This document shows, piece by piece, positions 3,794 through 46,105 of a stretch of 64,000 bases of DNA. Both the position numbers and the translations under genes were made by a program. The DNA is from Candidatus Azotimanducaceae bacterium (GTDB lineage Bacteria > Pseudomonadota > Gammaproteobacteria > Pseudomonadales > Azotimanducaceae), in contig OZ242170.1 of NCBI GenBank assembly GCA_965205545.1, positions 1,649,149 through 1,713,148 on the forward strand, written 5' to 3'. Positions within the stretch are counted from its first letter, which is position 1; every line of letters starts with the position of its first letter. The notes under the pieces are model-generated. The model saw nothing but the letters and a program-made list of their open reading frames with translations, had not been told where the DNA came from and ran no database searches.

Positions 3794-4189
3794 CTATATA
3801 TCCACTGGAAAAGGCACGGCAATATCTTCAGATATCTCCTCCGTTGGTATAAAGATTTCTGCAATACCGTCCTCGTCGGATCCTTCTTCTTCAGATTGAG
3901 CTGATTCTTCATTTGACGAATCCATTACAGATTGGTTCTCTGCGTCAGTTTGCGCCGGATTAAGCCCCTCAGGTGCTGGCTTAGCGTTAGCATCGTTGTC
4001 CGTTTCCTTATTACCTGAAGAAGAGTCTGCCTCCTCCGAAGACACAGTCTCCTCGGAATTCGACGTCTCCGCTTGATCGGTCTGAGAGAGAACCACCGCT
4101 GAATTCAGCAAGAGGAATACAAGTGGCAGATTCACCAGCGCAAACCTAGAGAGACTGAAACTCTTGCGCTTTCTGCTTCTATTCTGCAT
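3794..4189 (-). CDS. Small secreted acidic low-complexity protein
   Basis: The start is taken at the internal ATG 4189, just after the stop of the upstream gene (4179-4181). It has a signal-like segment FALVNLPLVFLLLNSAVVLSQ, then a D/E/S-rich region, and ends in EIFIPTEEISEDIAVPFPVDI. Confidence 0.6.
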   Translation of the reverse strand: MQNRSRKRKSFSLSRFALVNLPLVFLLLNSAVVLSQTDQAETSNSEETVSSEEADSSSGNKETDNDANAKPAPEGLNPAQTDAENQSVMDSSNEESAQSEEEGSDEDGIAEIFIPTEEISEDIAVPFPVDI

Positions 4190-26899: not shown

Positions 26900-27727
26900 T
26901 CAATCGGACCCGTCGGATCCTCCTGAATTCGTTCCGCTGCCAAGACTACTGGTGCTAAGGCCTGCATTTCTCCCTTGGCTGCTCGACGAGATCGCTATGA
27001 CGCCCCCGGCATCCGGCGACGTGACATTGATAGCTGTCGTGTCAATTCCCGTTCCAAAAGGGCCCGAAGTCTCGTCGAAGGCCGTGCTCATCCAATCTTG
27101 GAACAAGGCATCGCGCAACGCAAATTCCTTCTTGAAATTGCAGGTGAGCTTTGAAATGTGCGTCCCGGCTACACGGGTGTGAATGCAACTTACTCCAGTA
27201 GCATCAGGACCGTACCTCTCCACAAAGGCAGCGACTACTTCCTTGACCTTCGGCTGAAGTCGCTCTGGTATTTTGCGCATGATTCTTTTGAAGTAGTTTT
27301 TGATCTGAGGATCCGAACGAGGTTCGGCAGCGACACCTAGCCATCCGATGCCGGTGGGAAAGCTCTTCTCTACTTCTCCTAATCCATTGAGGTAGATGTA
27401 GCCAACTCGAGCTTGCGCCATCTTGAAGCCTCTCTTGGCGGAGGCGAGTAGATAAGGGAATGCCTTCTTGTATTGCCGGGTCATGTAGTAGTACTCGCCA
27501 GTACGGTTCACCTCGTGAAAGTCGTCGAATTGAAATGCGTGCAGCACATCGTCCTGAATCCCAGTGACCACCATCTCCTCCAGACTGGCGTCTTCAGACG
27601 ATTCTTGCGCGGTCTCTATAGCATCGAACTCAGTTTCTTGGGCGAAGGTCGCTGCAAAGCAGAGGAGAGAGGCAAACGTGGTTACAAAACACAACGGTCT
27701 TATATACCGATAGCCAACGTGATTCAT
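26900..27727 (-). CDS. Secreted Sel1-like repeat protein, paralog 1 of 3
   Basis: It has a signal peptide ending AATFAQE, an acidic linker, and EEMVVTG. The Sel1-like unit is KKAFPYLLASAKRGFKMAQARVGYIYLNGLGEVEKSFPTGIGWLGVAA. A conserved Cys pair (GVSCIH...LTCNF) and a G/S-rich tail follow. Confidence 0.75.
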   Translation of the reverse strand: MNHVGYRYIRPLCFVTTFASLLCFAATFAQETEFDAIETAQESSEDASLEEMVVTGIQDDVLHAFQFDDFHEVNRTGEYYYMTRQYKKAFPYLLASAKRGFKMAQARVGYIYLNGLGEVEKSFPTGIGWLGVAAEPRSDPQIKNYFKRIMRKIPERLQPKVKEVVAAFVERYGPDATGVSCIHTRVAGTHISKLTCNFKKEFALRDALFQDWMSTAFDETSGPFGTGIDTTAINVTSPDAGGVIAISSSSQGRNAGLSTSSLGSGTNSGGSDGSD

Positions 27728-27890
27728 CTCAATATCGCACCCGAAGAGTGTTCGCGCTTGATTCTATATTGAAATTGTGTTCTTTCTTCGCTAGTGAACA
27801 GGCGTCAGGTCACTGCAATAAGTAAACGCATTCTAGATGGGCGACCTGGGCAAATGCCTGTGCTTCAGATCAGTCTTCCCGCGCCGGAGC

Positions 27891-28613
27891 TCATCCTCCT
27901 GCGCTTTGTGTAGACATCGAGTCCGCACCAGCGCCAGGCCCCGTTCCGTAAGGTGTTAGAGCTTGGTCAAAACCGGTGCTTAGCCAATCCTGGAACAAAG
28001 CATCACGATTCTCGAACTCTCCTTCGAAATTACACTTCAAGTCAGAGACATGTGTACCGGCCCTTCGCACATGATCGCAGCTCATTCCCGTGGCTTTTGT
28101 TCCGTACTTGTCTATGAATGACTGAACGACTTGCTCAATCTTGGGTTTAAGATGTTCAGGAATCGTCTTCAATAGATCCTTGTAGTAATTCTTGATTTCG
28201 GGATCCGACTTCGGCGACGCCGCAACTCCCAACCATCCAATAGCCGTGGCTTTGCTGGGCTTTATCGCACCTTGTCCCGTCAGATAGATATAGCCGACCT
28301 GAGCTTGCGCGACTTTGAACCCACGTTTTGCCGATGCGAGCAAATAGGGGAATGCGTCTTTGTATCGACCTATTCGGTAGTAGTACTCACCTCTGTCGTT
28401 GACTCGATGGAAGTCATTGAAGGTAAAGGCATTTTCGATAACGTTTCTGACTTCCGTAACGACCATCTCCTCCATTGTCGTGCTCTCGTACTCAGCAGCT
28501 TCCTCGTTTTTGCCTGAAGAATCGTCTGGCGACTCTTCCCCAAAAATTTGGCTTGACCCATGAGGAGCTAGCCACAGTAGAAGCGATATGAGCAATATTG
28601 AAGGGCGAGTCAT
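27891..28613 (-). CDS. Secreted Sel1-like repeat protein, paralog 2 of 3
   Basis: The start is taken at MTRPSILLISLLLWLAPHGSSQ (28613; the ORF maximum is 28670). It shows the same block order as paralog 1: MEEMVVTE, DAFPYLLASAKRGFKVAQAQVGYIYLTGQG, IGWLGVAA, and GMSCDH...LKCNF. Confidence 0.75.
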   Translation of the reverse strand: MTRPSILLISLLLWLAPHGSSQIFGEESPDDSSGKNEEAAEYESTTMEEMVVTEVRNVIENAFTFNDFHRVNDRGEYYYRIGRYKDAFPYLLASAKRGFKVAQAQVGYIYLTGQGAIKPSKATAIGWLGVAASPKSDPEIKNYYKDLLKTIPEHLKPKIEQVVQSFIDKYGTKATGMSCDHVRRAGTHVSDLKCNFEGEFENRDALFQDWLSTGFDQALTPYGTGPGAGADSMSTQSAGG

Positions 28614-28771
28614 TGGCGTCCTATGCTTTGGAGAATGGCAGGTTTGGCACTGAAGGAGTCCAAGCGTCAAAATGCATTCGATTTTGTCTTCTAATCTCTA
28701 CGAAAGTTCTAGCGAAACCTGTTTGCTGCAACGCCGACTTGAGCGGGCAGGTCAGATTGCGGGCTGCTCGA

Positions 28772-29533
28772 TCAGTTGCCGCTCGGTGTGGACGAACCAG
28801 TCAAGTCTCCAGTTGGGCCAGTCGGTATTGCACCTGTACTATTTCCTTCCAACAAGCTATTCACATCCTGCAATGCAAACTCGGCCTTGAAGTTGCATGC
28901 CATGCGTGCTATATGGGATCCTGCAGGACGAGACATGATGCACTCCATGCCTGTAGCGTCGGGTCCATAGCGCTTCACATACTCGGCAACAACCGCGTCG
29001 ACTGCAGGAAGCAACTCTTCGGGTATCTTTCTCAACAACCTTCTGTAGTAGTTGCGGATGCTAGGATCGGTGTCCTTCGATGCCGCAACGCCAAGCCACC
29101 CCATCGCGCGCCAACCATCTCGCGGAACCTCCCCCAGCCCTTGCTGGTAGATGAAACCCAGACGAGCCTGCGCCATTTTGAATCCTTGCTTGGCAGAGGC
29201 AAGCAAGTAAGGAAAGGCCTTTTTGTATTGCCTGGTCCGATAGTAGTACTCGCCTCGATTGTGCACCATGTGGCGGTCTGCGAACGTCTGTAGATTGGGA
29301 AACTCCGGTTGCTGTCCCGTGACTATGATCTCTTCCATGATCTCGGTGGGTAGCGAAGGTGGCTGAACCTCCTCGCCACTTTCGGCAGTTATTGTTTCCT
29401 CAGAAAATTCCGCTTCCTGCAATTCGTTTGACTCGCCACCGTGCGTGGGGGAATCTCCAGTTAGCTGTGCGCTAGCGGCAAACGTATACAGCATCAAGAA
29501 TGGAATTGCGACTGCAAGACCTATCTTCGGCAT
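28772..29533 (-). CDS. Secreted Sel1-like repeat protein, paralog 3 of 3
   Basis: The start is taken at MPKIGLAVAIPFLMLYTFAASAQ (29533; the ORF maximum is 29701). It contains MEEIIVTG, KKAFPYLLASAKQGFKMAQARLGFIYQQGLG, MGWLGVAA, and GMECIM...MACNF. Confidence 0.75.
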   Translation of the reverse strand: MPKIGLAVAIPFLMLYTFAASAQLTGDSPTHGGESNELQEAEFSEETITAESGEEVQPPSLPTEIMEEIIVTGQQPEFPNLQTFADRHMVHNRGEYYYRTRQYKKAFPYLLASAKQGFKMAQARLGFIYQQGLGEVPRDGWRAMGWLGVAASKDTDPSIRNYYRRLLRKIPEELLPAVDAVVAEYVKRYGPDATGMECIMSRPAGSHIARMACNFKAEFALQDVNSLLEGNSTGAIPTGPTGDLTGSSTPSGN

Positions 29534-29808
29534 GGCACCAGTAATATCACTTGGCCGGATTTGCATTATCTGGCAATCAGTTTGTACTTTTTCAGTGACA
29601 ATTTTGCTCTCGTTGGATTTTCTATTGTATGTGCATTCACAATCGGGTAATGTGGGAAATTCAATGCGGCACAGTGTCATCCCATTGTGAATCAACGTCA
29701 TGGGCAGTTGAACTCGGATCTTGTCGCGGGAAGGACATACCTAGCCAAGCTCGAACTAAAGTCTAAAATTCGACACCAAAAACCAACGGTCACAATACCC
29801 ATTTCGAT

Positions 29809-32168: not shown

Positions 32169-34283
32169 TTGACGAAGTACGTGCGCAGTCCCATCCAGTC
32201 TCTTGTTCAAGGAATCCTTGGACTTTCTTGGGTACTGGCTATGTGCTCGCTTACTCTAGAGGTGTGCGCGGATGACCAAGCGGATCCTCACTCGGACGCG
32301 AATGAGGAGGAGATTGAAGAGGTCGTTGTACGGGCCGACCCCGCTAGCTTAACCGCCCGTTCAAGTCAAGGAAGTGTGACTTCCGTCCGCGCTGCAGCTA
32401 TCTCGCTAATACGAGCGACTCATCCCAATGAAATACTGTCTCGTGTTCCTGGTGTCTGGGTGGTGCGTGGTTCGGGCCAGGAGCATCTAACTGGCATTAG
32501 GTCCGGAGTGCTAGCTGGAGCTGGCGCTTGCGGAGCATTCCTATTGCTCGAGGACAACATTCCAGTTCGGCCAGTAGGGTTCTGCAACGTTAATGGCTTG
32601 TTCGAGTTGAACACTGAACAAGCGGATGCGATCGAAGTACTGCGTGGTCCTGCAAGCTCAATTTTTGGAGGCAATGCGCTACATGGAGTCATCAATGTGC
32701 GCAGCTTCGTTGACACCAACACACCTAGTAGGTTGAGCGTTGATGCGGGTCCATACGACTTCCTGCAATTCCGCGTCGACTCTCGCAATAGAGATTCACG
32801 CTACAAAATGCACTCCACCAAGACCAATGGCTACCGCGAGTCCACTGGATACGCACAACACAAGGCAAATGTTCAGACAGCTGTTTCTTGGGGCAACTGG
32901 AAGTCCGCGCACACACTCTCAGCAACTTTGCTTGACCAGGAGACTGGAGGCTACGTAAACGGCTTCAAATCTTACGAAAACTCTCAGCTAAGAAGATCGA
33001 ATCCAAACCCCGAAGCATTTCGCGATGCAAAATCGGTGCGGGCGGCCAGTCACTGGATGGGCAAATACGCGGAAGGAAGTCTGTATATAAGCCCCTATGC
33101 TCGACGATCCACCATGAAATTTCTGCAGCACTTTCTGCCGGGTCAGCCTACCGAAAAGAACTCCCAGTCCAGTGTAGGTGTTGTTTCACAGTGGACGAAA
33201 ACCCATTCCCGACATTCCTTCACTTTGGGAACTCAAATAGAGTGGATGAATGCCCGTCTTCTTGAACAACAGATAAACGCCACAATTGGCTCACCTTTCC
33301 TGGTAGCTACCCGACCACAGGGAATTCACTACAACTTTGATGTCGCTTCAGCCACGTTCGCTGTGTTTGGGAATTCCATCGTTTCGCTCGGAAACGATGA
33401 ACTCAACTGCAGCCTACGATTAGAGCAGGTCAGGTACAACTACGACAATCTGCACCTCGACGGCAATACTCGGGACGATGGAACGCCTTGTGGATTTGGC
33501 GGATGTCTGTATACGCGGCCGGCAGACCGCAGCGACAGCTTCTATAACGGTGCAGTCCGGCTGGGCTACCGTCGATTTCTAGACGACCAAACCCGTATAT
33601 GGGGACTGGCAGGGTGGGGATACCGTCCACCACAGACAACCGAACTCTATCGATTGCAGAGCGGACAATCTGTGGCAGACTTGACGAGCGAAAGGCTTCG
33701 ATCGATGGAAGCAGGAGTGGAGGCCGTTCGCGACAACTTTGAAATCAGCATCGCTGCATATCGGGAGTCGAACAAAGACCTGATCTTTAGAGACGCCGAG
33801 GGTATGAATGTAAGCGACGGTGAAATCCTCGCTCAAGGTGTCGAGATTGAGTTCAACTGGAAAGCCACCACAATGCATAGTGTTGCACTGTCGGGCTCTA
33901 TAGCAAATCACGAATACAGATTCACCCGTACTGTTGCTAGAGGCGAACAGATCAATAAGGGAGCGGAAGTGGACTCGGCGCCTTCACTTCAAACCAGTGT
34001 CCGATGGATATTCCAGCCAATTCCCACGACTATGCTTGAGGTGGAATTTGTCCAAATTGGCCCGCACTATCTCAACGCGGCGAACACAGCAAAATACGGT
34101 GGACACACTCTAGCGCACATCCGAGCCAACTGGATTTTCGATGCGAATTGGCGCGGTTCGCTAAGGATTACGAATGCCTTGGACGCCAAGTACGCCGATC
34201 GCGCCGACTATGCGTTTGGCAACTACCGCTACTTTCCGGGTACTCCGCGGCAATTGTTTGCGGGAATCGAGTACGAGTGGTAG
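32169..34283 (+). CDS. TonB-dependent outer-membrane receptor
   Basis: 704 aa with a signal peptide and a TonB-box-like EEIEEVVVRA. Plug blocks are ILSRVPGVWV and IEVLRGPASSIFGGNALHGVINV. The C-terminus ends in FAGIEYEW with a terminal aromatic residue. The start is a TTG and is uncertain. Confidence 0.9.
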   Translation: MTKYVRSPIQSLVQGILGLSWVLAMCSLTLEVCADDQADPHSDANEEEIEEVVVRADPASLTARSSQGSVTSVRAAAISLIRATHPNEILSRVPGVWVVRGSGQEHLTGIRSGVLAGAGACGAFLLLEDNIPVRPVGFCNVNGLFELNTEQADAIEVLRGPASSIFGGNALHGVINVRSFVDTNTPSRLSVDAGPYDFLQFRVDSRNRDSRYKMHSTKTNGYRESTGYAQHKANVQTAVSWGNWKSAHTLSATLLDQETGGYVNGFKSYENSQLRRSNPNPEAFRDAKSVRAASHWMGKYAEGSLYISPYARRSTMKFLQHFLPGQPTEKNSQSSVGVVSQWTKTHSRHSFTLGTQIEWMNARLLEQQINATIGSPFLVATRPQGIHYNFDVASATFAVFGNSIVSLGNDELNCSLRLEQVRYNYDNLHLDGNTRDDGTPCGFGGCLYTRPADRSDSFYNGAVRLGYRRFLDDQTRIWGLAGWGYRPPQTTELYRLQSGQSVADLTSERLRSMEAGVEAVRDNFEISIAAYRESNKDLIFRDAEGMNVSDGEILAQGVEIEFNWKATTMHSVALSGSIANHEYRFTRTVARGEQINKGAEVDSAPSLQTSVRWIFQPIPTTMLEVEFVQIGPHYLNAANTAKYGGHTLAHIRANWIFDANWRGSLRITNALDAKYADRADYAFGNYRYFPGTPRQLFAGIEYEW

Positions 34284-34399: not shown

Positions 34400-34720
34400 C
34401 TAATTTCCAGGAGCTCTATAGGAAACGTTCTTGCGTACCGCTTCGTCGATAGTCTCCGGAGAAACCAGCACCTTCATGGTTACATCCAGCGCGCCTGCGG
34501 CGCCAATGAACATCGAAAGCGCAACCGCTGAAGCCTCGTCGGGAAGGTCTACAACCATCAGCAAATCGACATCCCCAAATGCGTAATACATGGCGTCCAG
34601 CGAGCCACCCAGACCTTCAACCGTCTGCGTCAGTGCCGCTCTTCTGCCGCTGCCTCCTTCCTTGAGCAAGCCCTTTACTCCCGCTTGTGTATAGCTTGCC
34701 TGAAATAGGTACTTTGACAT
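34400..34720 (-). CDS. GYD domain protein
   Basis: 106 aa. MSKYLFQASYTQAGVKGLLKEGGSGRRAAL...GGSLDAMYYAFGDVDLLMVVDLPD matches the GYD family pattern. Confidence 0.8.
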   Translation of the reverse strand: MSKYLFQASYTQAGVKGLLKEGGSGRRAALTQTVEGLGGSLDAMYYAFGDVDLLMVVDLPDEASAVALSMFIGAAGALDVTMKVLVSPETIDEAVRKNVSYRAPGN

Positions 34721-35059: not shown

Positions 35060-38000
35060 ATGAAATTGCAGCCAACAACTGTTCTCCGTGTTGCCGCAGC
35101 CGAAATGCGGACTTCGCGGCGATTGGTCCGGTTCTGGACAATAGTTGCCGTGCTCTCGATTATTTCACTCGCGGGCTACGCGCTCTCGTGCTTGATCTTG
35201 AGTTTCACTGCCCCCTACTCACCATCTCTGGGAGCGGCAACACCGCTGTATTTGCTGGGAGGAATCGATCCCACCTTCTTCCTAGCGTTCCAAATGGCCG
35301 CTCTTCTCCTGCTCTTCGACGCCGGGCACCAACATACTAGAAACCGCATCGACGAAGTGCTCGACTCCATGCCCGTAACAAACCTGGAGTACCTCGCAGG
35401 CAGGGTATTGGGCATCTCCTTCCTGCTGTGGATGGTTGCAGCCGTGAACGTTCTGCTGATGCAAATATTCGGCGTCGTGGCCAACGCATTTAACTTCAGC
35501 TACGCCGAGCCAATTCAATTGCATTCGATCATTAATCTCTTGCTCGTTGATGCACCGGCCACCTTGCTGATCTGGGGTTCGTTCGTTGTTTTTCTCAGCG
35601 TCGTGCTGCGCATTCGCGTTCTCACCGTGGCCGTGGCATTGGCGGCCATGTTCGCCTGGTTCTTCCTGGTTCTCAATGTTCCGTACTCATTGCTGTCCAT
35701 CGTATCGGCGTCGTCCAACGACAGCCTCTTTGTTTCCGATCTGATTCCGGAAATCGCGTCATGGCAAACGATCCTGGTGCGCATAGCCACTTTGCTCGGC
35801 GCTGTTGCGCTCGCCGTTGCCGCCGCAACTGCCATGCGACGACGCGATGGCGCATCGACTCTGGCGAGCGCGTCGACCATCCTGGTTGCCGTTGGCTTGT
35901 GCGGAGGAGCGTATGCGCTGAGCGCAACTAGCGTGCTTCAGGAGTTCGGCGATCCCGCCAAGTGGCACCAAGCCCACAAAGCGAACGCCTGGTCCGGCTC
36001 CGTCGACGTTCTGGAGATTTCGGGCACCGTTCAAATCGACCCGGGGAAGCGGCTTGACATCGACCTCAATCTCACCCTGCACGTTGAAGCCGACCTCTCG
36101 GAGCAACTGGTTTTCACGTTCAATCCAGGCATGACAATAGACAGCATCGAATTCGATGGCAGCCCAAAGAGTTTCACCTTCCAGAACGGATTGCTGCAAC
36201 TTGAGGTTCAAGATGCCCCGACTCTTGACTCACGGCACGTGATGCGTGTTGTGGCGCACGGGAAACCTAACCCTCGATTCGCCTATTTCGACAGCGCCTT
36301 GAACTATATGACCGACCCCGACGTGCCCATTCGATCGGTTCGCATCCTCGGCAAAGATGGCTCTGTGTTTCGTTCCAACTTTGTCGCATTGATGCCAAAC
36401 GTCTACTGGTATCCCGTGCCGGGGCTTGTGCGTGGAGACTTTGGTGCAGCGGAACAAGGAACGGATTACTTCAACGTGAGCTTGTCGGTTGAACTTTCCA
36501 AGAAGAGTCTCCGGTTAGTCGCCACTGGCACAACGGTCCAAGACGTGAACGGTGGATCTAATTATCGAGTGACCTCAGAAATGCCAATTTCAGAAATTGG
36601 CCTGTTTGCGGCGGATTACGAAAGTACTTCGCTTGATGTTGAAGGTGTGACATTCTTCATGCATTTGCACAAACGGCATGCCAAGAACATGGACCTTACG
36701 GCCGGATTCGAAGAAGCATTCGCATCCGAAGCCGCAAACCGGCTGCAGCAGCTTAAAGAACATGGTTTGTCTGTTCCTCAAAAAGGGATTAGCTTTGTTG
36801 AAGTTCCAAATCGGTTGCGTACGGTTGGAGGGGGATGGCGAATGGACAACATGAGCTCCCTGCCTGGTATTTCGCTGATGAAGGCACAAGCATTCCCCAG
36901 GACCAATTTCGATCTCGCAATCCGATTTGCTAAGCGTCAAGAAGAACCCGAGCAAGTTCCCGAAATGCTAGCGAATCTCTTGTTTCGATACTTCGAAATG
37001 GGAGTCGGAGTAGACAATTTGTGGACTACGGCACCTGAGCATCTATGGTCACATGTCACATCAGCCACGGGCGACCATGCTGAAGCGCTAGATCAAGTCG
37101 TACTTGCATTGATTTCCTTTCTGACAAGTACTCCTCAGCAGTTCTTTTCGATTTATTCAACGTTTCACGTAGCCAATACAACCGCCGTAAGCCCCTATAC
37201 CTTGAATTATGGTGCAGACCCAGAGGGATGGGCACCTTATCAGTTTGAGGTGCGCGAATCGGAGGTGAGCTACGGTGAGCGTCAGTCAGTTTGGACATAC
37301 ATGGAGAGCAATGGACTGACCGAACTTCCAACCCCGAACGGCAATCAAAGAGACATTGAATTATTGTTGACAAAAACCAACTCAATAGCGGACGGGCTGC
37401 TTCACGCCAACGGCATCGAAAAGATTCTGGGGTGGTTGACAGCTCTTCGTCTACAGTTTGCCGGTCAGAATTACACCCTCGACGATCTGATTCAGTTCGC
37501 AAAAGAGCACGAGATCGTGTACGACCCCTTCTTAACGGAATGGTTGGAAGAAACTCCCTTGCCGGCATACGCTTTTAAGCTAGTTTCGATGGAGCGAATC
37601 GCAGACGACGAGCACGGCGGTCCTCGCTACCAAACCTCTTTAGTTGTAAGAAATGTTGGACCAATTTCAGGGTTCATTAGGGTTGAATACCCTCATGACC
37701 AAAATGTTGATCGACGGTTTCCCATCCTGTTGTCAACCGAAGGGATTCGAATTGAAGGAAACTCCGCAAGACAGATAAACATAGTCAACTCATACGTCTT
37801 GAACCGGGTAAGTGTGGTACCTCATCTCTCGCTCAATCGCCAGCCAATGACACTTTGGCCGAATGCCGAGTCCATTTCCGAAAGCCCCGACGAAGAGCCC
37901 GCTCCATTTGAAGAGAGCAGCATTTGGATTCCGAGCTCCAACGGGATCGTGGTAGACGACCTCGATTCTGGTTTTTCTGCAAACCAAACTGTTCCCAAGA

Positions 38001-38521
38001 TCACGCAATCGGCAAATCTAGGTCCATTCGATTGGTTTCGAGAGCACAGATTGGAAATAGAACTGGAAGGCGGACTGCCAAGTTGGGGTCAAGAGTATGG
38101 TTCAGGTTATTGGGGTACTACTAGGCAATTGTGGAACAGATTTGCAATTGACAGTGCATATGGCAAGTACCGAAGAACTTCAACAAGCCTATGGAACACA
38201 CATTCAACGACATTCCCTACGGTTAGTTTTGAAGCCAAGACACCAGAAGCGTCTTTGTGGAGACTTGAATACCACGTTCCGATGACTCGTTTCATTATGG
38301 GCAGACGCAACACGATGAAATACCAGTTTGTTGTGTCCAACGAGAGCACTACCTACGATGTCGAATTCGAAAGCAATCCGGAAACCCCTGGCTGGCATGA
38401 GCTCGGACAATTCCAATTGACGGCGGGTCCGGTCGGCGTGGAACTCGTGCGAGCGGTTGGTTTTGGACCTGTCTTCGCAGACGCAATCCGTTGGATCAAA
38501 GCTGGTGACACACCGCGTTAG
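35060..38521 (+). CDS. Large membrane protein, paralog 1 of 3: ABC-2-permease-like 6-TM N-terminus, inactivated M1-aminopeptidase-like ectodomain, C-terminal beta-sandwich-like module
   Basis: 1153 aa, with the ATG 8 nt after GGGAGG. About 6 hydrophobic helices lie in aa 20-290. The block order then parallels M1 peptidases (WYPVPG, YRVTSEMPISEIGLFAADY, FVEVPNRLRTVGGGWRMD at the GAMEN position), but no HExxH occurs anywhere. The C-terminus runs IVVDDLDSGF...YGKYRRT...ADAIRW. Confidence 0.7.
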   Translation: MKLQPTTVLRVAAAEMRTSRRLVRFWTIVAVLSIISLAGYALSCLILSFTAPYSPSLGAATPLYLLGGIDPTFFLAFQMAALLLLFDAGHQHTRNRIDEVLDSMPVTNLEYLAGRVLGISFLLWMVAAVNVLLMQIFGVVANAFNFSYAEPIQLHSIINLLLVDAPATLLIWGSFVVFLSVVLRIRVLTVAVALAAMFAWFFLVLNVPYSLLSIVSASSNDSLFVSDLIPEIASWQTILVRIATLLGAVALAVAAATAMRRRDGASTLASASTILVAVGLCGGAYALSATSVLQEFGDPAKWHQAHKANAWSGSVDVLEISGTVQIDPGKRLDIDLNLTLHVEADLSEQLVFTFNPGMTIDSIEFDGSPKSFTFQNGLLQLEVQDAPTLDSRHVMRVVAHGKPNPRFAYFDSALNYMTDPDVPIRSVRILGKDGSVFRSNFVALMPNVYWYPVPGLVRGDFGAAEQGTDYFNVSLSVELSKKSLRLVATGTTVQDVNGGSNYRVTSEMPISEIGLFAADYESTSLDVEGVTFFMHLHKRHAKNMDLTAGFEEAFASEAANRLQQLKEHGLSVPQKGISFVEVPNRLRTVGGGWRMDNMSSLPGISLMKAQAFPRTNFDLAIRFAKRQEEPEQVPEMLANLLFRYFEMGVGVDNLWTTAPEHLWSHVTSATGDHAEALDQVVLALISFLTSTPQQFFSIYSTFHVANTTAVSPYTLNYGADPEGWAPYQFEVRESEVSYGERQSVWTYMESNGLTELPTPNGNQRDIELLLTKTNSIADGLLHANGIEKILGWLTALRLQFAGQNYTLDDLIQFAKEHEIVYDPFLTEWLEETPLPAYAFKLVSMERIADDEHGGPRYQTSLVVRNVGPISGFIRVEYPHDQNVDRRFPILLSTEGIRIEGNSARQINIVNSYVLNRVSVVPHLSLNRQPMTLWPNAESISESPDEEPAPFEESSIWIPSSNGIVVDDLDSGFSANQTVPKITQSANLGPFDWFREHRLEIELEGGLPSWGQEYGSGYWGTTRQLWNRFAIDSAYGKYRRTSTSLWNTHSTTFPTVSFEAKTPEASLWRLEYHVPMTRFIMGRRNTMKYQFVVSNESTTYDVEFESNPETPGWHELGQFQLTAGPVGVELVRAVGFGPVFADAIRWIKAGDTPR

Positions 38522-38602: not shown

Positions 38603-41600
38603 TTGAGTTCGGAAATTGGACTTGACAGATACGTGAAACTTAGTGAAGGCACGTCGTCGAGCACCACGGGAAGCAGAATCCTTGCTGCAACTCGGGCCGA
38701 ATTTGAAAACACCAAGCGGCTCACACGATTCAAGATTCTGCGAATCGTACTTCCGCTGGCTACGCTTGTCGCGTACTCCATGTCGTGCTTTATCCATGTG
38801 TTTGTCGCGCCGTATTCCCCAACCTTTGGTGCTGCGACTCCAAAGTACCTTCTGGAGAACATCGATCCCACATTCTTCCTGATCTTCCAGCTGGCTGCAC
38901 TAGTCCTCGTTTTTGATGCACCGCACCGCCATCGGCGCAATCAAATCGCCGAGGTCTTGGATACGAAACCTGTGTCGAATTTCGAGCTGCTTATGGGTCG
39001 AGTGATTGCAACAGCGGCATTGATGTGGCTACTTGTGGTAGTCGTCGTTCTCATTCCATGCTTGATTGGACTAATTGCCGCCGTGGGCGGGTTTGATTTT
39101 GCCGAACCCCTAGCAATTGCTTCGGTTTTGAACCTTCTGTTTCTTGATGCACCCATTACGCTTCTGTATTGGTGTGCGTTTGCCGTATTCCTGACCTGCA
39201 CTCTGCGATTTCGCGTTGCTGTCTTTGCCGTGGCTACAACTTTCATGGTCCTTTGGTTCTTCTTAACCATTGAATCGCCCTATTCCGTCTTGTCATTGGT
39301 GTCGCCGTCCTCAAACGACACTCTATTCATTTCCGATTTGACACCTGAACTGGTTTCAACGCCTGTCTTTCTGGTCCGATTGGCCACGCTCTTGCTTGCA
39401 CTTGCCTTTGTCCTGTTGGCAGCCAGCTGGGTCGAGCGGAACGACGGTACATCTCGGCCGAATGTTTGGGTTGTCGCACCACTTGTTCTTGTCGCATGCG
39501 CAGGAATGTACGGCTTGGCCAGTGCGATGGTCTTTGGCGCATTAGCGGACGAAAAGCGGTGGCGTGAATTTCATGCAACTGCAGAAGAAGGACGAGAGGT
39601 AGATCTCAAGCGAATCTCAGGCACTATGCAGCTGAATGCTAGATCCCATTTGGAACTCGATCTCAAATTGGAATTTGCTACCGATTTGCAAGACTCTGAA
39701 CCCTTTGTTTTTGCCTTCAATCCGGCAATGAACATCCAATCGTTGGAATTGAACGAGTCCAATGTCAGTTACACGTTTCAAGATGGTCTCATTCAACTGC
39801 ACAACCCCAATCTGCGTGAATCGAATTCTGACCAAACATTGCGAATCGTCGCACGGGGTCGACCCAACCCCCGTTTTGCCTACTTCGACAGCGCAGTCAA
39901 TTACCTGACTGATGCCGATGTCCCGATTCAGCTAACTTCTCTATTCGGCAGGGAAAACTCCCTATTCAACCCTCGGTATATTGCATTGATGCCTGCCATT
40001 TGCTGGTACCCAATTCCCGGTCCGATCAATGGGCAGTTCATGCGTCAACAGCGTGGGTCGGACTACTTCGATGTCGATTTGAATGTCAAGTTATCGCCAT
40101 CAAATCTCTCGCTTGTCGGTACCGGAATTACGAGTAGCCAAGGTGAAGAAGCATCGACCTTCAAAGTTGTGTCTCACGCACCAATGAGCGAAATTGGCTT
40201 GTTCGCTTCGTCATTTCTTCGCCTGTCGACCGAAATCGATGGAATGACTATTGCCATGTACTTCCACAGGAGCCACAGCAAGCACCTAGCCTGGATCGGA
40301 GACCTTGAACAATCCTTCCGAACGGAAGTACAAACGTGGCTACGACGCTACGTCGACCTCGGACTAACACTGCCGCAACAATCGTTGTCGTTTGTCGAAG
40401 TTCCAAGAAAACTACGCACAGTCGGAGGAGGCTGGCGAATGGACTCGGTCGCCGCGCTTCCGGGTGTCGTTCTTGTCAAAGAACACGGCTTCCCCACAGC
40501 TCCGTTGCCCATGGGTCTAGATCGACTTGAGGAGAGAATCGCCGACCGGGAGCAACGCCAGGCAAGCCAGACTGCCCTTGTAGTGCAATACATGGCGCGC
40601 GGATTGGAAACGGACAATCTGTGGGTCAGTCTGCCTAACACCTTTTGGTCGGAAGTAACTTCTGCCACAGGAGAATACGCGCAAGCTCTTGACCAAATCG
40701 CTCGCTCCCTTATCGGGTCAATAGCACCCAATCCTCGTCAATTCTTCTCGATCTACTCAAGTTCATACGTTGCACACATGACTGGTGTAAACCCCTTTAT
40801 ATCCGGCGAATTCTTAGGGACCGTTCTTTACGACCGACCAGTGCCATCGCCCGTTCAATCGTTTGCTGACGACTATGGCCGGCGCGCGTCGGTGTGGAAT
40901 TATGTCGAGACTCTCGCATATTCGGATTTGCCTACGAACAACAATCAACGCGACCTCGAATCAATGCTGTTCAAAAGCAACGAAATTGCTAGAGGATTGC
41001 TCTCGGTAAACGGCGAGGAGAAGGTATTCAAATGGCTTTCCAACTTGCGAAGGAGATTCGCCGGATCCAACTACACACATCGAGACATGCTGGCGCTAGC
41101 CGAAGAGCATGAATTGATTGTTGATCCATTTCTTACCGACTGGATAAGAAACGCCTCGCTTCCTGGCTATATTGTTTCTCGAATGAGTGTTGATCGAATT
41201 GCCGACGATGCTAGAGGCAACCCCCAATACAAGACGAGTGTGACAGTTAGAAACATGGAGCCAGTTGGTGGATTTGTGCGACTGCAATACCCAACTGAAG
41301 AGACGTGGAGCTGGATGTTTCCCTACTACACGCAATCAAAAGGGGTTTACGTTAGTGCAAAGACTTCTACGCGCATAAACCTTATCACTCCCTATGAAGT
41401 TCGCACTGCTCGACTGCTTCCGGGTCTTTCCCTGAATCGAGGTGCGATTAGCCTACGAAAATCCTCCTCGACTATCGGTGAACTACTCGAGGGCCAGCCT
41501 CCCCCGTTTGCGCAGGCAAGCGAATGGATACCAACCTCCGACAGCGGAATCATCGTCGACGATCTCGATGCGGGATTTACAGTTACTCAACCGGCTCCCA

Positions 41601-42112
41601 ATTTGGCGCGTCCGACGTCTCTAGGTCCCATGGGGTGGTTTGCGCCTCCACGTCTCCAGTTGGAGCTGGACAGTGGTTTGCCCTACTTGGGGACCTATTA
41701 CGCACGCATTTCCGAATTCCGTGTTGCTCGCGGTACTTGGGGACGCATTGTCGAAAGCTCTGCGTACGGCAAGTATCGAAAAACAGTAGCGCAGGCTTGG
41801 ATCAAAGACAAGATCCACACTGCGCAGTTCACGACGGAGTTGCCTGAATCCACCTTGTGGAGACTCTCGTTTCATGTTCCTCGGAGTTGGCGACCGGGTC
41901 CGAATGTGGATTTGCAGTGGCAGTTCAAGATTTCCAACGAGAGCGAGAATTGGTATCGCGAATTTGACCTAGGTTCCAAAGTGCCAGGGTGGAATTCAAT
42001 CGGAGACTTCGACCTGCCCAAAGGCGCCATTAGTGTGGAACTGGCTGGCACTTCCAAACCTGGGCATGTCTACGCCGACGCAATTCGCTGGGCTAGAGCA
42101 ATCGATCCTTAG
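38603..42112 (+). CDS. Large membrane protein, paralog 2 of 3 (same architecture)
   Basis: It is collinear with paralog 1: NIDPTFFL, FDAPHRHRRN, SSNDTLFISD, RFAYFDSA, ALMPAICWYPIPG, FVEVPRKLRTVGGGWRMD, IIVDDLDAGF, YGKYRKT and ADAIRW. There is no ATG near the 5' end, so the start is either the TTG at 38603 or the GTG at 38633 (VKLSEG). Confidence 0.7.
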   Translation: MSSEIGLDRYVKLSEGTSSSTTGSRILAATRAEFENTKRLTRFKILRIVLPLATLVAYSMSCFIHVFVAPYSPTFGAATPKYLLENIDPTFFLIFQLAALVLVFDAPHRHRRNQIAEVLDTKPVSNFELLMGRVIATAALMWLLVVVVVLIPCLIGLIAAVGGFDFAEPLAIASVLNLLFLDAPITLLYWCAFAVFLTCTLRFRVAVFAVATTFMVLWFFLTIESPYSVLSLVSPSSNDTLFISDLTPELVSTPVFLVRLATLLLALAFVLLAASWVERNDGTSRPNVWVVAPLVLVACAGMYGLASAMVFGALADEKRWREFHATAEEGREVDLKRISGTMQLNARSHLELDLKLEFATDLQDSEPFVFAFNPAMNIQSLELNESNVSYTFQDGLIQLHNPNLRESNSDQTLRIVARGRPNPRFAYFDSAVNYLTDADVPIQLTSLFGRENSLFNPRYIALMPAICWYPIPGPINGQFMRQQRGSDYFDVDLNVKLSPSNLSLVGTGITSSQGEEASTFKVVSHAPMSEIGLFASSFLRLSTEIDGMTIAMYFHRSHSKHLAWIGDLEQSFRTEVQTWLRRYVDLGLTLPQQSLSFVEVPRKLRTVGGGWRMDSVAALPGVVLVKEHGFPTAPLPMGLDRLEERIADREQRQASQTALVVQYMARGLETDNLWVSLPNTFWSEVTSATGEYAQALDQIARSLIGSIAPNPRQFFSIYSSSYVAHMTGVNPFISGEFLGTVLYDRPVPSPVQSFADDYGRRASVWNYVETLAYSDLPTNNNQRDLESMLFKSNEIARGLLSVNGEEKVFKWLSNLRRRFAGSNYTHRDMLALAEEHELIVDPFLTDWIRNASLPGYIVSRMSVDRIADDARGNPQYKTSVTVRNMEPVGGFVRLQYPTEETWSWMFPYYTQSKGVYVSAKTSTRINLITPYEVRTARLLPGLSLNRGAISLRKSSSTIGELLEGQPPPFAQASEWIPTSDSGIIVDDLDAGFTVTQPAPNLARPTSLGPMGWFAPPRLQLELDSGLPYLGTYYARISEFRVARGTWGRIVESSAYGKYRKTVAQAWIKDKIHTAQFTTELPESTLWRLSFHVPRSWRPGPNVDLQWQFKISNESENWYREFDLGSKVPGWNSIGDFDLPKGAISVELAGTSKPGHVYADAIRWARAIDP

Positions 42113-42187: not shown

Positions 42188-45100
42188 ATGTCCGCAGTTC
42201 CGTCCATCTCCAAGATTCTCTCTGTGGCTGCCGGAGAGGTCCGAACATCTAGGCGACAAGTACGATTCTGGACCATAGTCTTCCTTTTGTCGTTGTTTTC
42301 CCTAGCTGGCTATGGACTGTCATGCTCCTTCCTCGCCTACGCTGCAACGACCTCTCCATCCTACGGCACTGGCATTCCCCAGTACCTGCTGGGCAACATC
42401 GATCCCTCCTTCTTCCTCATGTTTCAAATGGCCGCACTGTTCCTATTGTTCGACGCGTCGCACCAGCACAAACGGGATCGCATTGCAGAGGTGTTGGACT
42501 CAAAGCCGATTTCAAATTTCGAATACTTGGCCGGTCGAGTACTCGGTACTTCCGGTTTGCTGTGGATCGTCGTAGTGTTGAACATTCTGGCGATGCAAGT
42601 GTTCGGCTGGATAGCAAAAACGACGAACATCGCTGTTGCTGATACGCTGCAGGTTCACTCGGTTCTCAACCTGGTCTTCTTGGATGCACCTACGACATTG
42701 TTGATCTGGTGTAGCGTTGTGGTCGTGCTCTCGAGCCTATTGCGCATGCGCGTTTTGGTTGCGGCAGTCGGAGTCGGGCTAATGTTCGCGTGGTTTTCCT
42801 TGGTGCTCGAATCCCCGTATTCGCTGCAGGCAATCGTTTCCCCTTCCTCAAACGACTCGCTATTCGTATCCGAATTGCTACCTGAACTTGCTTCGCCGTC
42901 AGTCCTTGCGATTCGAGTCGGTACCGTCCTAGTGGCACTAGCACTACTAGCAATTGCAACCGTAATACTTCCGCGACGTGACGAGAATGCCCAAATTACC
43001 AACTTGCTCTCACTCACCGCAGGAGGAGTTGGTGCGTTGCTGGCGGTTTGGGGTTCTTGGAACCATGTTGCGCAAGTCAACGTTGCCGACCAGTGGGCGG
43101 AGGCACACAAAAACTACAAATGGGATGCGCAAACTGATTTAGCTTCAATTAGCGGAACGGTGCGTATGGAACGCGGCCGTCTCGCCATTGACTTGATCTT
43201 GAATGTTGAATACGAAACAACCAAATCTGACGAGCTCGTATTCTCATTCAATCCCTCAATGAGTATTCAGTCTTTGGAAATGAACGGAAACTCCACCCCG
43301 TTCACATTCGAAAACGGCCTGCTTGTAGTTGAGAATTCTAGGTCGCCATCCGAACGTAGCGCATATACGCTACACATCGTTGCGCATGGCATTCCCGACT
43401 ATCGATTTGCCTATTTGAACAGTGCATTTGATTATTTGAGAGATACGAGTGTGCCGCGTCAAGCAATCGCTCTATTCGGAAGTCACGCATCGGTCTATGA
43501 TTCGAGGTATATAGCACTAATGCCAGCAGTAAATTGGTATCCGGTTCCAGGTCCGTTACAACACGGCTACACCTCACTGCAGCATGGCCTGGACTACTTC
43601 GATGTCGATCTTACTGTAGCCCTTGAAAACGACGATTGGCAATTGGTCGGGCCAACGGCATCGATTCAAATTGAAGAACAAGCCAATGCCTATCGAGTTG
43701 CCTCCGAACAGCCCATACACGCAATTGGGTTGTTTGCGTCGGATTTCGAAAGTGCGTCAATCGATATCGAGGGAACGACATTCGTCGTGTATTTGCACAA
43801 ACAGCATGCATCTGGCCTTCAATTGATTGAGGAAATTGACGAAACAGTTCGCAACAAAGCCGACACTTGGCTGCACAAGTTCGCTGAGCATGATTTAGCG
43901 ATCCCAAATCGTTTGGTCTCTTTTGTTGAAGTGCCTAGACGATTGCGGACGGTCAGCGGTGGCTGGCGGATGGATTCCATGCAAACACTACCGGGACTTG
44001 TGCTCGTAAAGGAACATGGCTTCCCCAACGTAAGAATGGATCTAGTGCAAAAGCGTCAATCCAATGACGAGGTCTCACTGTCACAAACGTTATTCGAATG
44101 GCTTGTCTATTACTCACAGCAAGGAATCGGGCCAGACGATGCGTTGTCAGGGCTAGCGGCGAAGATCTTGACCCACTCAACTTCTGCAATTGGTCCATAC
44201 GCCCAGCCTCTGGATACTGTCCTTCAATACTTGACCGCATTTGTTGGCCATGACGATGTAGACGACTTCTTTGACAGCTTCTTCAACGTTCATTCGACGA
44301 TCCACTTTGCAGACACGACCGCAATTAGCCTGTTTGAAGGAGTTACTGGCATTGAGGATGGCGTGAGCAATGCCGACGTGCCAAGTTCCATGCCCACCCT
44401 ACATGGACTACGCGAGAGGCACTCGACGCGTACATCAATCTGGAATGATTTGGAGATCGTGAGCTTTGAGGATCTTCCCACGGGCCACGGGCATAAGCGT
44501 GACCTGGAGTTTTTCCTATTCAAATGCAGAGAAATCGCTCGCGCGCTCTTTTCGATCAACGGCGAGGAGCGTGTCCTCAGATGGCTGGCAGCCGTAGTGA
44601 ACCACAAGCAGGGCAAAAACTTCACATACGACGACCTAATCACAATAGCTGAACAACACGAGATTGTGACGGACCCGTGCCTAACGCAGTGGATTTCTTC
44701 GGCTTCCCTACCTGGATACGCAGCCTCTCCCTACACCACGGTACGAATTCAAGACGACGAGCGCGGCAACCCCCAGTATCAAACAAGTGTCGCTGTCAGA
44801 AATACAAGCAATGTCGCGGGGTCCGTGCATCTGCAATATCCAACCGAAGAAACCTGGAATTGGACGCATCCATACTTAGGGAGCAGCAAAACTGTTCAGA
44901 TCGACGGAAATTCGACCAAACGAATCAATTTCGTTACTGATTACGAAATTCGAAGCGTTTACTTGAATCCGGGGCTTTCGCTAAATCGAGACATACTTGG
45001 ACTATCCAGAGATCCCTCCTCGTCCACCGAATTGACAAATCGTGAACCAGCAAGCTACGAAACGATCGATTCGTGGTTGCCACCATTCGAAGAAGGAATC

Positions 45101-45652
45101 ATAGTCGACGACCTAGACCCGGGGTTCGTGGTCAACCAGCGAGCGCCACGCACCGCGCGTCCTTCGCGCGTGGGTCCTAGGGCATGGTTTCGGATGCCTC
45201 GCCTCGACGTCGAAATGGACCATGGGCTTCCGGTTAGAGGTCGCTGGATGTTCGAGTGGCACCCGCCAAGAGGAGTCTGGACACGAGTGGTAGAACCGCG
45301 CGCGTATGGGAAATATCGAAGGACGGCAGCGCGATTCTTTAGCAGGGGACACAATCCCCAAGCCGCATTCGTGACAGAAATACCAGAATCCACAAAGTGG
45401 CGTCTTGACTACCACGCGCCGCGTTCACTAGGCGATAGCTGGTATCGAGGCTTAAAGTACGAACTTGTCATAACCAGCGACACAAAGTCGTGGAATGCCG
45501 AATTGGATGCCCACAACTGGAGCATCGGATGGAACGTCGTCGACGATTTTGACTTGAATGAAGGTGCAGTGCGAGTAAATCTGGTAGGGATATCGCAGCA
45601 TAGCCTGTTGATTGCTGACGCCGTACGATGGACCAAGATTGCAGGACAATGA
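42188..45652 (+). CDS. Large membrane protein, paralog 3 of 3 (same architecture)
   Basis: 1154 aa, collinear with paralogs 1 and 2: NIDPSFFL, FDASHQHKRD, SSNDSLFVSE, RFAYLNSA, ALMPAVNWYPVPG, FVEVPRRLRTVSGGWRMD, IIVDDLDPGF, YGKYRRT and ADAVRW. Confidence 0.7.
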   Translation: MSAVPSISKILSVAAGEVRTSRRQVRFWTIVFLLSLFSLAGYGLSCSFLAYAATTSPSYGTGIPQYLLGNIDPSFFLMFQMAALFLLFDASHQHKRDRIAEVLDSKPISNFEYLAGRVLGTSGLLWIVVVLNILAMQVFGWIAKTTNIAVADTLQVHSVLNLVFLDAPTTLLIWCSVVVVLSSLLRMRVLVAAVGVGLMFAWFSLVLESPYSLQAIVSPSSNDSLFVSELLPELASPSVLAIRVGTVLVALALLAIATVILPRRDENAQITNLLSLTAGGVGALLAVWGSWNHVAQVNVADQWAEAHKNYKWDAQTDLASISGTVRMERGRLAIDLILNVEYETTKSDELVFSFNPSMSIQSLEMNGNSTPFTFENGLLVVENSRSPSERSAYTLHIVAHGIPDYRFAYLNSAFDYLRDTSVPRQAIALFGSHASVYDSRYIALMPAVNWYPVPGPLQHGYTSLQHGLDYFDVDLTVALENDDWQLVGPTASIQIEEQANAYRVASEQPIHAIGLFASDFESASIDIEGTTFVVYLHKQHASGLQLIEEIDETVRNKADTWLHKFAEHDLAIPNRLVSFVEVPRRLRTVSGGWRMDSMQTLPGLVLVKEHGFPNVRMDLVQKRQSNDEVSLSQTLFEWLVYYSQQGIGPDDALSGLAAKILTHSTSAIGPYAQPLDTVLQYLTAFVGHDDVDDFFDSFFNVHSTIHFADTTAISLFEGVTGIEDGVSNADVPSSMPTLHGLRERHSTRTSIWNDLEIVSFEDLPTGHGHKRDLEFFLFKCREIARALFSINGEERVLRWLAAVVNHKQGKNFTYDDLITIAEQHEIVTDPCLTQWISSASLPGYAASPYTTVRIQDDERGNPQYQTSVAVRNTSNVAGSVHLQYPTEETWNWTHPYLGSSKTVQIDGNSTKRINFVTDYEIRSVYLNPGLSLNRDILGLSRDPSSSTELTNREPASYETIDSWLPPFEEGIIVDDLDPGFVVNQRAPRTARPSRVGPRAWFRMPRLDVEMDHGLPVRGRWMFEWHPPRGVWTRVVEPRAYGKYRRTAARFFSRGHNPQAAFVTEIPESTKWRLDYHAPRSLGDSWYRGLKYELVITSDTKSWNAELDAHNWSIGWNVVDDFDLNEGAVRVNLVGISQHSLLIADAVRWTKIAGQ

Positions 45653-45746: not shown

Positions 45747-46105
45747 TGGTGGAGGCGGCGGGAATCGAACCCGCGTCCGACAGTACTCCATCCTCGGCTC
45801 TACATGCTTATTCCTGCCTTTGATTTAACCCATCGGTGACCCGGCAAGACTGGGTTCCATTGGGCGAGTCCTCAGTTTTAGCCATCGGACGATCGGACCT
45901 TCTTCCGTGGCGATCCCGTAAGTATGATCCCGTCCACCCTATACGGGCATTCAGATGGACAGGACTAGCGTGCTATCTAAGCCGCTAGAGCGTAGTTGTC
46001 GTCGTTGGCAACTAATTGAAATTGAAACAATTGATTTACGAGAGCTGTTTCTCTCTCGGCATGCACCTGAGACTTTGCATCCGCCGTCGAATCCATTTCG
46101 CCCCC
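45747..46105 (-). ncRNA. ssrA: tmRNA (SsrA)
   Basis: The minus strand starts GGGGGCGAAATGGATTCGACGG and ends GGTTCGATTCCCGCCGCCTCCACCA, forming a tRNA-Ala-like acceptor/T-arm. The internal tag ORF GCC AAC GAC GAC AAC TAC GCT CTA GCG GCT TAG encodes ANDDNYALAA* (46009-45977). Confidence 0.95.

Follow-up and report, generated by a model that had tools for sequence, protein, structure and literature searches.

Three tandem genes on the forward strand of a stretch of 64,000 nucleotides from a Candidatus Azotimanducaceae bacterium (contig OZ242170.1; the whole stretch is hereafter called the window) are the subject of this report. The proteins that they encode, designated paralogs 1 to 3, appear to join a membrane domain of the ABC-2 type (ABC, ATP-binding cassette), a periplasmic module with the fold of the M1 zinc aminopeptidases that has lost the catalytic residues, and a C-terminal domain resembling carbohydrate-binding modules (CBMs). 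An earlier note on this DNA, made from its letters without database searches, had recognized the systematic loss of the M1 signatures and had proposed a ligand-binding groove retained without hydrolysis, that is, a pseudo-enzyme or a receptor. The structural claim is solid, while the function considered below is suggested by models and by sequence comparison. Taken as a whole, and with some reserve, these are probably functional tandem paralogs of an inner-membrane protein family, in which the ABC-2 permease, the dead M1 module and the CBM-like domain act together, binding a ligand without cutting it and being coupled to an ATPase.

The M1-like ectodomain and its lost catalytic residues

To approach the fold of the ectodomain, paralog 1 was modelled by AlphaFold2 from a 75-sequence alignment; the model reached a mean predicted local distance difference test (pLDDT) value of 87.6 and a predicted template modelling score (pTM) of 0.87. 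Foldseek, run with this model against the PDB, gave E ≤ 1e-3 for 208 matches, and each of the 50 best is an M1 aminopeptidase (E between 2e-15 and 8e-14). The matches include IRAP (2.2e-15), PfA-M1, ERAP1/2, PepN, the puromycin-sensitive aminopeptidase and the lanthipeptide peptidase EryP, as well as a two-domain M1 protein of Deinococcus with a target-normalised template modelling (TM) score of 0.64. The alignments with M1 structures extend over 650-700 columns, run through two consecutive domains in the same order and combine an identity of 7-12% with a probability of 1.00 for more than 50 structures.

Profile comparison leads to the same family. The reference profile comprised the E. coli pepN product and the products of eight diverse plasmid-borne M1 genes, with HExxH in all nine and G[AG]MEN in seven of them. 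Aligned by hhalign with this profile, the family to which the three paralogs belong reached a probability of 94.3% in local mode (E 1e-7, 442-457 columns) and of 97.7% in global mode (E 1e-11), and the anchors of high confidence fall on two hallmark M1 segments, namely YPL..D.vavP and Y-x-K-G. The significance came with the nine-sequence alignment, a single-sequence comparison with PepN giving a probability of only 10.7%. Simpler searches were blank: the Pfam Peptidase_M1 model matched none of 42 diverse family members at E < 0.1, neither NCBIfam nor a phmmer search of PDB sequences gave an M1 match for the paralogs, and the family profile searched against the PDB had aminopeptidase N as its best match, in two collinear pieces but with a non-significant E of 0.32. 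The low identity and these blanks could be taken for the mark of an unrelated ectodomain fold over-read by Foldseek and by the earlier note, yet this explanation is very improbable, in view of the long two-domain alignments in M1 order and of the independent profile-profile alignment anchored at both hallmark segments. From model and sequence together, the ectodomain is best described as a true, very divergent M1 homolog; one of the two objections that the earlier note had itself named, an ectodomain that is not M1-like, therefore falls away.

In its layout, the module resembles M1 zinc aminopeptidases (PepN, ERAP1/2, IRAP, PfA-M1 and LTA4H; MEROPS M1), with the same β-rich N-domain and thermolysin-like core in the same order, and with the segments 'YPL..D.vavP' and 'Y.KG....L....G...F' still recognizable. 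It differs from them by the absence of GxMEN, of HExxH-x18-E, of the catalytic tyrosine and of the C-terminal helical domain IV, which long M1 enzymes have and the model of paralog 1 lacks, and by a loop about nine residues longer at the place of the GAMEN loop. Unlike the M1 enzymes, it is fused to a membrane permease and to a CBM-like domain, and it escapes the Pfam M1 models.

The catalytic signatures are lost throughout. The earlier note had found no HExxH in the three translations, and indeed neither HExxH nor HxxEH is present in any of them; GxMEN is likewise absent, and the strings that had been quoted from the region where HExxH should lie (NLLFRYFEMGVGVDNLW and two others) are found in the three proteins. 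The loss is wider than could be seen from the window, for it holds in all 241 relatives examined: G[AG]ME[NS] occurs in none of the 241, and HExxH occurs in six, at six different non-homologous positions. In the alignment with PepN, the residues H297, E298 and H301 correspond to F642, R643 and E646 of paralog 1, which lie inside the downstream string quoted in the earlier note. This assignment, although of low local confidence, was constant in every run that aligned these residues, H297 being left unaligned in two domain-limited runs. Across 231 full-length relatives, all three zinc-site positions vary (R/E/S/A/Q/F at 642, R/Q/N/D/S at 643, E/A/S/Q/R at 646). The catalytic tyrosine Y381 is matched by L770, a position occupied by L, A, I, T, M or S in the family, and the lysine that comes next is K or R in 223 of the 231 relatives. 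As to E121 of PepN, the anchor of the N-terminal amine, it aligns weakly with the near-invariant S435. A replacement metal site, which could have restored catalysis, was found nowhere on the helical side of the cleft, where the equivalents of H297, E298, H301 and Y381 are all variable. To judge from these alignments, no canonical catalytic or N-terminus-anchoring residue survives.

Of the five testable features that define M1 peptidases, the two-domain fold is present, whereas HExxH-x18-E, GxMEN, the catalytic tyrosine and a match to a curated hidden Markov model (HMM) all fail. Because four of the five fail, the family is classified here as an M1-fold pseudo-peptidase rather than among the M1 peptidases. 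Models and alignments support this assignment, since they show both homology to peptidases and loss of the catalytic residues, and in this sense the pseudo-enzyme proposed in the earlier note is borne out.

Inactive M1 relatives have a precedent in the TFIID subunit TAF2, which is an inactive M1 homolog. Another is yeast Tma108, given as the M1 example in a 2024 review of metallo-pseudopeptidases (PMC11266112), in the text of which a search for a bacterial M1 pseudopeptidase returned none. As proposed here for the bacterial family, Tma108 and TAF2 use the M1 fold for binding, without demonstrated proteolysis. They are soluble, cytosolic or nuclear, and eukaryotic, whereas the present family is bacterial, predicted to be periplasmic, anchored by an ABC-2 domain and endowed with a conserved replacement motif of its own. 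No description of a bacterial ABC-2-fused inactive M1 homolog was found in the literature searched. Annotated ABC-permease/M1 fusions were also absent, both among the plasmid-borne M1 genes and from that literature. Some proteins carry the NCBI name 'ABC transporter permease/M1 family aminopeptidase' and may represent the same fusion of an ABC-2 permease with an M1 domain. Should they prove to be a catalytically intact sister group, the fusion would already be known and only its degenerate branch would be new.

The signature loop and the conserved side of the old cleft

The motifs that the earlier note had placed at the GAMEN position are exactly what the three segments translate to (see Table 1 for sequences and coordinates). 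They are also better conserved than their surroundings, as had been claimed: 15 of the 18 columns (83%) are identical in the three paralogs, compared with 29% overall, and in the 75-member family alignment the motif ranks first for conservation among 1136 segments of 18 residues. Counts in the 231 full-length relatives, with the numbering of paralog 1, define its core. The glycine/aromatic tip comprises G591 (224), G592 (223), W593 (203), R594 (185), M595 (190) and D596 (153); it is flanked by V580 (212), E581 (222), P583 (228), L586 (226) and R587 (227), and followed downstream by P602 (227), G603 (212), E609 (221) and P613 (218). Farther upstream, H540 is kept to a similar degree. To judge from these counts, the conservation of the motif is not a chance resemblance.

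The placement of the motif at the GAMEN position holds for the loop but not for its individual residues. In hhalign alignments, V580-E581-V582-P583 of the family pair with V253-A254-V255-D256 of PepN at confidence 9, and this top-confidence anchor is the strand leading into GAMEN; inside the loop, the residue-by-residue match has a confidence of 1-2 and varies with the run, one run pairing G592, R594, M595 and D596 with G261, A262, M263 and E264. The spacing is similar, since GAMEN starts five residues past D256 in PepN and GGGWRMD seven residues past P583, and the excess length of the loop lies between the VEVP strand and the next strand (604-608). In the model, the loop shows isolated β-bridges at 586, 589, 597 and 600-601, which suggests a hairpin whose tip carries the Gly-rich motif. 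The alignments thus support GGGWRMD as the occupant of the GAMEN loop; a replacement of the GAMEN glutamate by R or D is no more than tentative.

Beside the loop stands a set of conserved polar residues. H540 lies at the end of the strand before helix 538-547, and the β-α-β topology of the modelled chain suggests that H540, E581 and the signature loop are neighbours. Judged by sequence, selection appears strongest on the face of the old cleft formed by the β-sheet (VEVP..LR..GGGWRMD..LPG...E together with H540), while the helical catalytic side drifts. A constrained sheet side fits a retained docking surface, and an active site or metal site rebuilt in a non-canonical way could also lie there. 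The paralogs themselves are not uniform at this place: paralog 1 reads A-Q-A at residues 609-611 (36884-36892) instead of the E-H-G that paralogs 2 and 3 share with the family, so that MKAQAFP takes the place of the family's LKEHGFP. The three paralogs may therefore differ in function.

The second of these possibilities raises the question of whether the module is still an enzyme, in which H540, E581, E609 and D596, assisted by R587, W593 and R594, would form a new metal or acid-base centre acting on a non-canonical substrate, such as a glycopeptide or a glycan presented by the CBM-like domain. What speaks for such a centre is that its polar residues are 96-98% conserved in the 231 relatives (66% for D596) while the old zinc positions drift, that the chain topology would put them close to the signature loop, where parallel strands that are neighbours have their C-terminal ends, and that the conservation of the signature seems greater than a mere scaffold would call for. 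Yet no known catalytic motif fits, searches of Pfam, NCBIfam and PDB sequences being empty; H537, the second histidine of a possible HxxH, is present in just 162 of the 231 relatives; and E609 is alanine in paralog 1 and in eight others. Overall, a rebuilt enzyme is regarded as unlikely.

Membrane domain, gene contexts and possible function

The earlier note did not mention the N-terminal domain. Seven helices are predicted, and the loops assigned to the cytoplasm contain 12 K/R while those assigned to the periplasm contain none; helix number and charge bias together indicate a cytoplasmic N-terminus and a periplasmic M1-like module. A model of this domain alone (pLDDT 76, pTM 0.78) has NosY of NosDFY as its best PDB match (E 6.9e-5, probability 1.00), and further folds matched are those of ABCG5/8, ABCG25, PmtCD, CcmB/C, LptF and KpsM. 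Sequence profiles detect the domain at sub-threshold levels only: ABC2_membrane HMMs match 6 of 42 members, the best match having E 1.8e-4 and 21 bits where the cut-off is 27, and paralog 2 has a faint ABC2_membrane_3 match. According to the model, the domain has an ABC-2 permease fold of type V, similar to NosY and ABCG proteins, in which six helices are followed by a seventh that carries the chain into the periplasm. The cytoplasmic loop between transmembrane helices 2 and 3 (TM2-TM3), among the most conserved segments, is kept also in those relatives in which the family gene and the ABC ATPase gene before it overlap, and it is a candidate contact for an ABC ATPase.

NosDFY is an instructive comparison, since its ABC-2 permease acts on a large periplasmic partner and is not a plain exporter. 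NosY (PDB 7o0y, 7znq and 7qba) is the closest fold to the membrane domain, with TM scores of up to 0.55-0.64; its partner NosD is a separate β-helix protein, whereas the M1-like module of the family is fused to the permease. The NosF and NosY genes are, to our knowledge, always adjacent. Unlike them, an ATPase gene adjoins the family gene in a minority of loci (11 of 85 arrays).

At the opposite end, β domains follow the M1-like core (residues 315-830) and precede a Golvesin_C-like domain. Pfam PF25275 scores 26.4 bits in paralog 1 and 26.0 bits in paralog 2 (cut-off 31.6) and gives no match in paralog 3; it is detected in 36 of 42 relatives at E < 0.1 and reaches 42 bits in a distant relative, P0105. 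Golvesin_C has been grouped with the CBM6/35/36-like carbohydrate-binding modules (PMC9166713).

The size of the family depends on the depth of the search. A word-indexed protein search returned 105 relatives, those bearing a name all being 'hypothetical protein' from metagenome-assembled genomes (MAGs) of Gammaproteobacteria, and its repetition with the alignment as query returned the same 105. An exhaustive HMMER search found 2,416 representatives (clustered at 50% identity) at E ≤ 1e-3 and 1,033 at E ≤ 1e-30; the best 150 of the 2,416 are mostly full-length proteins of about 1,110-1,220 residues, with a few shorter fragments. Cluster look-up of the relatives added no names, and tblastn of paralog 1 against plasmids gave no match. 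Among species-representative genomes, the best 80 loci all belong to MAGs of Pseudomonadales, including 'Candidatus Azotimanducaceae', the oligotrophic marine Gammaproteobacteria (OMG) group and many sponge-metagenome bins. Copies are numerous: one chromosome of 3.64 Mb has at least seven separate loci, and a genome of marine or sponge-associated Pseudomonadales can contain as many as eight copies or more.

The arrangement of these genes was established in 78 loci, which hold 85 arrays (70 single, 11 double, three triple and one quadruple). An ABC ATPase gene lies immediately upstream in 11 of the 85; in locus L062 its stop codon overlaps the start of the family gene (ABC_tran, E 3.7e-30). Twelve arrays are followed by genes for a HlyD-type adaptor and then for two AcrB-type pumps, after which come another ABC ATPase domain and a small membrane protein of ABC-2-like type. 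The ATPase-linked members are 27-30% identical to the window proteins and retain VEVP..LR..GGGWRMD, H540 and the cytoplasmic loop. The distant P0105 (profile E 4.6e-43), from metagenome assemblies of human-gut type, has neither GGGWRMD nor HExxH and is located behind ABC ATPase modules.

Other peculiarities of these loci deserve to be recorded. Single open reading frames (ORFs) of about 1,592-1,597 amino acids (L062:17628-22421, L047:17666-22444 and L069:12858-17651) each encode a complete AcrB-type permease of the resistance-nodulation-division class (ACR_tran, residues 5-1030) with a C-terminal ABC_tran domain (residues ~1316-1465) and are followed by a small ABC2_membrane_2-like protein; this fusion looks unusual, and ORFs of such length occur in at least 10 loci. 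Proteins of about 600 residues without a Pfam match stand beside family genes in 14 loci (for example L038:1-1811, reverse strand), often in two or three tandem copies. In a 5.7-Mb genome (L002:4860-13405), two tandem family members come after genes for a BlaI-like repressor (Penicillinase_R) and a BlaR1-like Peptidase_M56 protein on the same strand, an arrangement that may reflect a regulatory link to envelope or β-lactam sensing.

The fusion to an ABC-2 type permease domain alters the likely mechanism, and the most likely role is that of a non-proteolytic periplasmic module for binding or for force transmission. The two-domain module descends from a zinc peptidase and has itself lost the glutamate of GxMEN, the zinc site HExxH...E and the catalytic tyrosine; the dead module would keep the substrate-docking edge of the cleft and bind a peptide or glycopeptide uncut, with help from the CBM-like domain. 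ABC-2 domains work as dimers in known systems, and here a homodimer, or a heterodimer of tandem paralogs, would couple the module to a cytoplasmic ATPase. That the module binds a ligand of the periplasm or envelope instead of cleaving it, and that the ABC-2 domain provides such coupling, is a plausible proposal, held with a confidence slightly short of even. The fusion with ABC-2, together with operons containing HlyD and AcrB-type genes, suggests a link between ABC-type mechanotransmission and the handling of envelope ligands, which was not described in the literature searched.

Several observations weigh against a binding module coupled to an ATPase. A tblastn search found no ABC ATPase gene within the window, and none stands next to 74 of the 85 arrays, so that ATP coupling of these three copies is an assumption; the direction of any transport is likewise inferred. 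The local hhalign confidence is low at the GAMEN and HExxH positions, the polar set next to the motif is compatible with catalysis or a metal site as well, and paralog 1 has alanine at the near-invariant E609, a replacement seen in nine relatives in total.

The scarcity of ATPase genes also gives substance to the idea that the proteins act ATPase-free, as surface-exposed receptors, sensors or scaffolds for which the ABC-2-like domain is a membrane anchor only, in the manner of ABC-2-type membrane proteins with large external domains and without a dedicated ATPase. The many paralogs per genome in sponge-associated and marine Pseudomonadales, as is typical of proteins that act at surfaces or in interactions, and the CBM-like terminal domain would suit this role. 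Against it, the high conservation of the TM2-TM3 loop, shared with the members that overlap an ABC ATPase gene, argues for a retained cytoplasmic partner, and a function free of ATPase is accordingly thought to have a low probability. Rather less probable still is a bolder form of the coupled mechanism, namely an ATP-driven periplasmic machine in which the ABC-2 domain moves the dead M1 module as a clamp catching envelope peptides or glycopeptides for HlyD-AcrB pumps, or in which the cleft is a new zinc-independent active site. If such a clamp existed, with a cleft formed by GGGWRMD, H540, E581 and E609, the many paralogs in sponge-associated bacteria would reflect diversification of ligand specificity.

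The family is a clear bacterial case of a pseudo-peptidase in which the catalytic half of the cleft has decayed and the substrate-docking half is now the most conserved part, and it offers a testable handle on the reuse of dead peptidase folds. It also concerns annotation, as pipelines miss both the M1 and the ABC-2 homology of a family with 2,416 clusters at 50% identity.

The three tandem genes and their surroundings

The features of the three genes and of their immediate flanks are collected in Table 1.

Table 1. Location of the tandem paralogs, their predicted domains and adjoining genes in the window
Feature	Position	Strand	Description
TonB-dependent receptor gene	32169-34283	+	Directly 5′ of the triplet; syntenic with family genes in 12 related loci
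GYD-domain protein gene	34400-34720	−	Directly 5′ of the triplet, beside the TonB-dependent receptor gene
Paralog 1	35060-38521	+	1153 amino acids; ABC-2-like membrane domain, M1-like dead peptidase module, β domains, Golvesin_C-like domain
Membrane domain, paralog 1	35060-35983	+	Residues 1-308; seven helices; cytoplasmic N-terminus and periplasmic C-terminus predicted; fold of ABC-2 / type V exporters
Cytoplasmic TM2-TM3 loop	35315-35407	+	FD..H.H.RNRI.EVLDS.PV.N.EYL.GR
β-rich domain, equivalent to M1 domain I	36002-36670	+	Residues 315-537; DSSP of the model; hhalign to PepN 14-215
Thermolysin-like 'catalytic' domain equivalent	36671-37549	+	Residues 538-830; without catalytic residues; model, Foldseek, hhalign
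H540	36677-36679	+	226/231 relatives; end of strand parallel to VEVP; polar set with E581, R587, D596, E609
Signature loop, paralog 1	36794-36847	+	FVEVPNRLRTVGGGWRMD; strand VEVP, then loop with isolated β-bridges, Gly-rich tip at the place of the GAMEN loop
HExxH-helix equivalent	36947-36997	+	Residues 630-646; PepN H297, E298, H301 = F642, R643, E646 (low local confidence)
LLTK segment	37364-37375	+	Residues 769-772; pairs with PepN V380-Y381-E382-K383 (hhalign confidence 7-9)
Golvesin_C-like (CBM6/35/36-like) β sandwich	37943-38500	+	Includes invariant GIVVDDLD.GF and ADAIRW
Paralog 2	38603-42112	+	1169 amino acids, TTG start; architecture of paralog 1; 43% identity to paralog 1
Signature loop, paralog 2	40391-40444	+	FVEVPRKLRTVGGGWRMD; from translation
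Paralog 3	42188-45652	+	1154 amino acids; architecture of paralog 1; 42% identity to paralog 1
Signature loop, paralog 3	43922-43975	+	FVEVPRRLRTVSGGWRMD (SGGWRMD); from translation
tmRNA (transfer-messenger RNA) gene	45747-46105	−	Tag ANDDNYALAA; 95 bp 3′ of paralog 3, its own 3′ end towards paralog 3

The triplet and its gene order are also present in the closest MAG, the syntenic locus L013. The ratios of non-synonymous to synonymous substitution rates (dN/dS) against the orthologs in that genome are 0.20 for paralog 1, 0.27 for paralog 2 and 0.21 for paralog 3, and because all three orthologous pairs have such low values, all three copies are kept by purifying selection. Decay of the triplet into pseudogenes is ruled out by the same values.

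The abutting tmRNA gene had suggested a genomic island at the triplet, an idea rejected on the grounds that there is no flanking direct repeat, that the GC content is even (0.50-0.54) and that the locus is syntenic in relatives. With regard to a role in anti-phage defence, PADLOC gave no match. A scan for promoters and terminators was uninformative, with fewer sites than in shuffled sequences.

Elsewhere in the window, two groups of genes on the reverse strand are worth mentioning. Three tandem ORFs at 26900-29701 (275, 259 and 309 amino acids), each with weak Sel1-repeat matches, form another small paralog group, of a kind common in host-associated bacteria. At 4179-6230, an ORF of 683 amino acids contains four PEGA domains as well as an FGE-sulfatase (formylglycine-generating enzyme-like) domain and is located within a cluster of TPR, TonB_C, MotA/ExbB and VWA genes.

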